A DNA stretch of 64,000 nucleotides from Escherichia coli (GTDB lineage: Bacteria; Pseudomonadota; Gammaproteobacteria; Enterobacterales; Enterobacteriaceae): NCBI RefSeq assembly GCF_024502345.1, contig NZ_JALDNN010000001.1. The stretch is one strand, 5' to 3'. Position 1 is the stretch's first letter. Each line of letters opens with the position of its first letter. A model generated the notes under the pieces. The model did no database searches. It had not been told where the DNA came from and saw nothing but the letters and a program-made list of their open reading frames with translations. Both the position numbers and the translations under genes were made by a program. This document shows positions 41,314 through 41,433 of the stretch, in pieces.

Positions 41314-41340
41314 GATAATAATTCTTAGTATTAATTCGGC

Positions 41341-41375
41341 AATCTGATTCTACTCCCCCCCAGTACCTGATACTA
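41341..41375. promoter_or_regulatory. two RcnR operator sites (TACT-G6-N-AGTA type)
   Basis: TACTCCCCCCCAGTA (41341..41355) and TACTACCCCCCAGTA (41361..41375) in rcnA-rcnR divergent intergenic. Confidence 0.8.
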
Positions 41376-41433
41376 CCCCCCAGTAGATTAATAGTGCTAT
41401 GATTTTTCATGTTCTTGTTAACCAGGTGTTGCC

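Follow-up and report, generated by a model that had tools for sequence, protein, structure and literature searches.

Two sites between the divergent rcnA and rcnR genes of an Escherichia coli strain match the tandem type 1 operator of the nickel- and cobalt-responsive repressor RcnR

We show that the DNA between the divergent rcnA and rcnR genes of this Escherichia coli strain carries two 15-bp sites that, with a probability of about 0.95, serve the Ni(II)/Co(II)-responsive repressor RcnR as its tandem type 1 operator. The sites were found in a 64-kb stretch of DNA analysed as a whole, hereafter the window, and nothing that we found contradicts their reading as an RcnR operator. The preliminary description of this DNA had already named an RcnR operator pair here, an identification that is correct and already known. 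Its sole error is numerical, since it placed the sites at 41341 to 41355 and 41361 to 41375, 10 bp below their true positions at 41351 to 41365 and 41371 to 41385. The main value of this work is correct annotation, and the known picture of the system is unchanged. The locus comprises the following features.

39933 to 40271, minus strand: rcnB, periplasmic accessory protein (PF11776 RcnB, E = 3.3e-19; RefSeq)
40489 to 41313, minus strand: rcnA, Ni/Co efflux pump, the regulated gene, 274 aa (NicO, PF03824, E = 2.9e-69; RefSeq)
41314 to 41433: rcnA-rcnR divergent control region, 120 bp, as set by the ORF boundaries
41314 to 41329, minus strand: conserved block at the rcnA start codon, GATAATAATTCTTAGT in the window and the palindrome GAGAATNATTCTC in many other species and genera
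41347 to 41352, minus strand: inferred rcnA(B) -10 hexamer, TAGAAT, all six positions 80% to at least 95% conserved
41351 to 41365: RcnR site 1, rcnA-proximal, TACTCCCCCCCAGTA on the plus strand and TACTGGGGGGGAGTA on the minus strand, exact motif match
41366 to 41370: spacer between the RcnR sites, 5 bp, CCTGA
41371 to 41385: RcnR site 2, rcnR-proximal, TACTACCCCCCAGTA on the plus strand and TACTGGGGGGTAGTA on the minus strand, exact motif match
41395 to 41403, plus strand: inferred rcnR extended -10, TGcTATGAT (TGnTATAAT in most other species)
41434 to 41706, plus strand: rcnR, Ni(II)/Co(II)-responsive repressor, 90 aa (PF02583, E = 1.5e-21; RefSeq)

The presence of the sites, their spacing and their gene context are direct observations on this DNA. 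Both sites lie between minus-strand rcnA, whose ATG ends at 41313, and plus-strand rcnR, whose ATG begins at 41434, and the outer span given in the preliminary description coincides exactly with this intergenic region. A reading of positions 41100 to 41700 shows gattcTACTCCCCCCCAGTAcctgaTACTACCCCCCAGTAgatta; site 1 is TACT-C7-AGTA and site 2 is TACT-A-C6-AGTA, so that the distance from TACT to AGTA is 7 bp in both, while the G/C tracts measure 7 and 6 bp. Site 1, with its 7-bp G/C tract inside a TACT/AGTA inverted repeat, is of type 1. The TACTN7AGTA pattern has exactly two matches in the 64-kb window, with 0.22 expected per shuffle, and the published pattern, TACTGGGGGGNAGTA, matches the two rcnA-rcnR sites on the minus strand with 0 mismatches; no further match to TACTGGGGGGNAGTA with up to two mismatches was found in the window (0.18 expected). 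The TACT-C6/7-AGTA pair described earlier is therefore present, as the only exact matches in 64 kb, and its start-to-start spacing of 20 bp was given correctly. Within the intergenic region the motif occurs at these two positions only, leaving no published site elsewhere.

Comparison with K-12 MG1655 (rcnR b2105, rcnA b2106) shows the same locus, with two copies of the motif TACT-G6-N-AGTA and the flanking genes found in the window. The intergenic DNA is identical at 119 of 120 bases, including the whole of both sites, and the sole difference, at 41411 (G here, A in K-12), lies outside them; the K-12 locus also differs in having Glu34 in RcnR where the window has Asp34. Position 41411 adjoins the inferred rcnR transcription start, and A is found there in several other E. 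coli as well. Binding, stoichiometry, metal response and autoregulation are taken from the literature on the identical K-12 DNA, as relayed by papers that agree in citing the primary work (Iwig & Chivers 2009; Blaha 2011). According to PMC7055735, PMC3902906 and PMC7105576, the RcnR recognition motif is TACT-G6-N-AGTA. The operator is described in PMC3902906 as two type 1 CsoR/RcnR sites in tandem, each bound by one tetramer, in which RcnR touches the TACT/AGTA arms through the minor groove and reads the A-form-like shape of the unbroken G/C tract. PMC7105576 likewise gives two motifs per operator and has Ni or Co freeing the repressor, and PMC4124493, citing Blaha 2011, places two binding sequences between the rcnR and rcnAB start sites, with RcnR controlling both directions. 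The published motif, the identity with K-12 and the flanking rcnA and rcnR genes together support the reading of the pair as a type 1 RcnR operator, as had been proposed.

Among complete E. coli genomes, the 1.4 kb round the operator has matches in 5369 of 5426, with rcnA and rcnR annotated there, and the 85-bp core at 41326 to 41410 is identical in 4386 of 5345. Beyond E. coli, we scanned one genome per species and compared 80 rcnR loci, with 74-99% protein identity, from Escherichia, Citrobacter, Salmonella, Raoultella, Kosakonia, Rahnella, Hafnia, Erwinia, Edwardsiella, Morganella, a Vibrio and others. A divergent rcnA is kept in 78 of the 80, about 100-143 bp away. Counting strict sites in 81 loci, the window included, both are present in 67, one in 12 and none in two. 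Five of the non-strict loci (L010, L014, L026, L040 and L047) vary in tract length or at a single base or lie at a contig edge, eight exceptions (L051, L073, L074 and five Morganella loci) carry just one site, some of them with a decayed remnant as well, and one (L009, Escherichia whittamii Sa2BVA5) is a deletion.

The contrast between the sites and their surroundings was measured by aligning 57 distinct intergenic sequences, each about 120 bp long, from other Enterobacterales. Mean identity to the window is 0.996 for site 1 and 0.991 for site 2, whereas it is 0.449 for the 5-bp spacer, 0.596 for the rcnA-side flank and 0.503 for the rcnR-side flank. A41370, just outside site 2, is at least 95% conserved. 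The spacer keeps its length but not its sequence: among 66 loci with two strict sites, the site starts are 20 bp apart in 65 and 21 bp apart in the remaining one, and within E. coli a SNP inside the spacer is found in LH13-b. As judged from this alignment, such conservation with fixed spacing is the signature of a protein-binding site, pointing to a sequence and a phasing that are both strongly constrained.

The highest conservation beyond the two sites is seen in the two outward-facing -10-like elements listed above. The exact promoter hexamers, the transcription starts and the overlap of sites and promoters are our own predictions from these patterns. The inferred rcnA -10 overlaps the TACT arm of site 1 by 2 bp, and DNA further toward rcnA from TAGAAT is only 10-40% conserved. 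The conservation of the rcnR element is T (80%), G (at least 95%), n, T (at least 95%), A (at least 95%), T (80%), n, a, T (at least 95%). From these elements transcription would be predicted to start near 41340 for rcnA and near 41410 for rcnR, in which case site 1 would cover about -11 to -25 of PrcnA, and site 2 about -31 to -45 of PrcnA and -39 to -25 of PrcnR. This layout agrees with the placement of the binding sequences between two start sites in PMC4124493. No good -35 was found in either inferred promoter, which fits the reported weakness of PrcnA (PMC7105576). A generic sigma-70 scan gave other candidates, TTGCCG-16-TATTAT on the minus strand, whose -10 stops at 41315, 2 bp short of the rcnA ATG, and TTAACC-18-TACAAT on the plus strand, which extends into the coding sequence of rcnR; both were rejected in favour of the conserved hexamers because they occupy poorly conserved positions and imply implausible start sites.

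Taken together with the published behaviour of RcnR, this arrangement suggests how the operator would work. Tetramers of apo-RcnR would occupy both sites, site 1 abutting and overlapping the inferred rcnA -10 and covering the PrcnA spacer, and site 2 covering the -35 regions of both divergent promoters. Since the sites would then cover both promoters, bound RcnR would exclude RNA polymerase from rcnAB and from rcnR. According to the literature, Ni(II) or Co(II) on RcnR lowers its affinity for DNA; both promoters would then open, rcnAB and rcnR would be transcribed and RcnAB would export the excess metal. Through these sites E. coli makes the expression of RcnAB, and of the sensor itself, respond to the Ni(II)/Co(II) level in the cytosol. 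It already serves as a synthetic-biology part (PMC7105576, PMC4124493).

A further conserved element is the block at the rcnA start codon, with a mean identity of 0.81 over 41314 to 41327. It is most simply explained as the rcnA ribosome-binding region, with AAGAA/GAGAA lying 8-13 nt ahead of the ATG, which is probably its nature, although 41314 to 41329 could conceivably hold a second regulator site. The block is GATAAT-rich and Fur-box-like by eye. A possible Fur box at 41314 to 41332 agrees by eye with about 13 of 19 positions of the consensus, the ribosome-binding region being the simpler explanation. A literature search on Fur and on transcription starts at rcnA returned nothing usable.

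Several other explanations of the two sites have to be weighed. They might be a 20-bp direct repeat that is neutral or due to chance and plays no part in regulation, as they also register as a two-copy direct repeat (D2), short two-copy families often being chance matches, and 2 of 100 shuffles also gave two matches to the loose TACTN7AGTA motif somewhere in 64 kb. However, both copies here fall within 35 bp, in the one intergenic region beside rcnR, and they are about 99% conserved across genera at a spacing fixed at 20 bp, in surroundings conserved at 45-60%. A chance repeat is effectively refuted by the phylogenetic footprint, and we consider its probability negligible. That the sites are bound mainly by another regulator, for instance the paralog FrmR or a global metal regulator such as Fur or NikR, is suggested by the 39% identity of FrmR to RcnR and by the conserved GATAAT-rich block beside the rcnA ATG. 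Yet the sites upstream of frmR have other arms (TATA-G6-TAT and ATA-C6-TATA) and form an inverted pair instead of a direct one, the GATAAT-rich block lies beyond the sites and is distinct from them, TACT-G6-N-AGTA sites accompany rcnR in each genus sampled, and the literature (PMC7055735, PMC3902906 and PMC7105576) assigns the motif to RcnR. Control mainly by a different regulator is thus very improbable.

The remaining alternatives concern the DNA or RNA itself. The TACT/AGTA arms can pair, a larger imperfect 16-nt dyad (I1) spans the whole operator, and the plus strand folds slightly better than its shuffles (z = -1.86), all of which could point to a hairpin or cruciform, acting as an RNA leader or terminator instead of a protein site. 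For the minus strand, the sense strand of rcnA, folding is no stronger than in shuffles, though (z = 0.25), the stems are only 4-6 bp long, and the sites, lying upstream of both inferred starts, would be absent from either mRNA; an Rfam scan of 41150 to 41600 at E <= 1 gave no match, and no terminator-like site was found. A structural role in place of protein binding is scarcely credible. The C7 and C6 tracts could alternatively serve primarily as slippage-prone contingency tracts for phase variation of rcnA, an idea that takes its appeal from one-base tract variants. In E. coli, site 1 has a C8 allele in APEC E956 (L083) and a C6 allele in TUM14759 (L084), and similar one-base changes occur in five other species (L014, L026, L040, L047 and L081). 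Against this stand the identity of the core in most E. coli genomes, the constant tract length in most genera, the shortness of seven bases for efficient slippage, and the role of the tract as a known RcnR recognition determinant (PMC3902906). Moreover, such isolated one-base homopolymer differences may be sequencing errors instead of real slippage. We regard phase variation as most unlikely to be the primary role of the tracts, and retain the reading of the pair as an RcnR operator.

The imperfect 16-nt outer dyad (I1) extends over 41339 to 41397, with arms GCAATCTGATTCTACT and AGTAGATTAATAGTGC; within it, ATTC ahead of site 1 and GA beyond site 2 are conserved. Its centre is the spacer, which gives the two-site operator an approximate two-fold symmetry reaching about 12 bp past the sites.

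The window sites fit the type 1 CsoR/RcnR class (DUF156, PF02583), and no difference from it was found; the tandem type 1 class has the RcnR operator as its founding example. Comparison with related systems sets these sites apart in informative ways. Type 2 CsoR sites, such as that of Streptomyces lividans CsoR (ATATACCCCTNAGGGGTATAT), resemble RcnR sites in having G/C tracts with (A)GTA/TAC dyads, and the protein, like RcnR, is an effector-released, tetrameric four-helix-bundle repressor of the same family. Type 2 sites, however, consist of two short G/C tracts with 2-4 bases between them, whereas RcnR sites have one unbroken tract, and they have about 11 bp between AT-rich arms and bind two tetramers per site, in contrast to one tetramer for each RcnR site (all as given in PMC3902906). 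The DNA upstream of E. coli frmR, the presumed FrmR operator, is also similar in having two G6/C6 tracts with AT-rich inverted-repeat arms. It differs in that its arms are TATA...TAT and its tracts are inverted within a larger palindrome, while the rcn sites have TACT...AGTA arms and are direct repeats 20 bp apart. The effector of FrmR is formaldehyde, as opposed to Ni/Co for RcnR (PMC4528141).

The number of sites varies between loci, and intergenic length tracks it, at about 100 bp with one site, 120 bp with two and 142 bp with three. A third site, AACTCCCCCCCAGTT, lies 21 bp past site 2 in the regions of about 142 bp of nine loci from Kosakonia, Phytobacter and relatives, metagenome-assembled genomes (MAGs) included (L052, L053, L055, L056, L058, L059, L066, L067 and L070). 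Single sites within 100-102 bp are found in Erwinia psidii, Edwardsiella anguillarum and Enterobacter sp. CC120223-11, and in Morganella a decayed remnant accompanies the one site (L051, L073, L074 and L077-L081 making up the single-site and remnant loci). Within E. coli, the 20 bp made up of site 2 and a spacer are exactly duplicated in tandem, giving three sites in a 140-bp intergenic region, in 3 of 5341 genomes, namely N47 (L085, positions 1481 to 1535), N39 and EC26. In E. whittamii Sa2BVA5 (L009), a 150-bp deletion has occurred between direct repeats AACCAGG(C/T)GTT, at about 1420 to 1435 of that locus and equivalent to window positions 41270 to 41430. The repeats are AACCAGGCGTT (window 41270 to 41280, inside rcnA) and AACCAGGTGTT (41420 to 41430), and the lost DNA includes the two RcnR sites, the two inferred promoters and codons 1-7 of rcnA, so that this strain probably has an inactive rcn system.

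RcnR of the window is identical to that of K-12 at 89 of 90 residues, the difference being E34D. His3, Cys35, His60 and His64 are all present and are invariant in 82 of 82 compared loci, while residue 34 (codon at 41533 to 41535), Asp in the window, is Glu in 81 of the 82, which cover Enterobacterales and a Vibrio. In a large collection, the exact D34 protein occurs on 378 contigs, as compared with at least 1000 for the K-12 E34 form; D34 is therefore a minority E. coli allele, which NCTC9064 shares. A review lists the N-terminal amine, His3, Cys35, Glu63, His64 and Glu34 as proposed RcnR metal ligands, with Glu34 given as a Co(II) ligand and a possible Ni(II) ligand. Because the RcnR of this strain has Asp34, the metal response in the literature was measured on a different RcnR form.

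The 20-bp unit of site plus spacer might behave as a copy-number-variable module, and natural variation in operator copy number and at the sensor site (E34D) might let populations adjust the Ni/Co set-point of rcnAB. We put this forward as a speculative and rather doubtful extension, and the identification of the operator is the same with or without it. The comparative data add modest value beyond annotation, in documenting the tight conservation of sites and spacing and in suggesting -10 positions, and natural variation in operator copy number and at Glu34 offers ready alleles for tests of induction thresholds.

Further observations concern the neighbouring genes. Downstream of rcnA and in the same orientation lies rcnB; a 172-aa ORF at 39933 to 40451 was set aside as an upstream-extended reading of this gene, the annotated 112-aa form matching PF11776 and RefSeq. 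The closest genome for the 1.4-kb region is NCTC9064, at 99.9% identity. We observed that rcnA is far more variable than rcnR: RcnA of other E. coli and Escherichia is 90-98% identical to that of the window, alignments with RcnA of other genera break up near the His-rich loop, and identity of at least 99% over 40400 to 41800 is reached in only 4 of 5369 genomes. On the other side, about 2.2 kb between rcnR and the thiM riboswitch (41707 to 43980) are missing from K-12, where thiM directly follows rcnR, and at least 80% of this insert is present in only 339 of 5426 E. coli genomes. It contains two small minus-strand ORFs, at 41816 to 42130 and 42140 to 42487, annotated by RefSeq as 'outer membrane protein' and 'hypothetical protein' and without a Pfam match, and it also encodes an HTH-like fragment. 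NCTC9064 has an extra IS1 in the rcnR-thiM insert. The thiM TPP riboswitch itself is found at 43981 to 44077 (RF00059, 71.2 bits), upstream of thiM, as expected.
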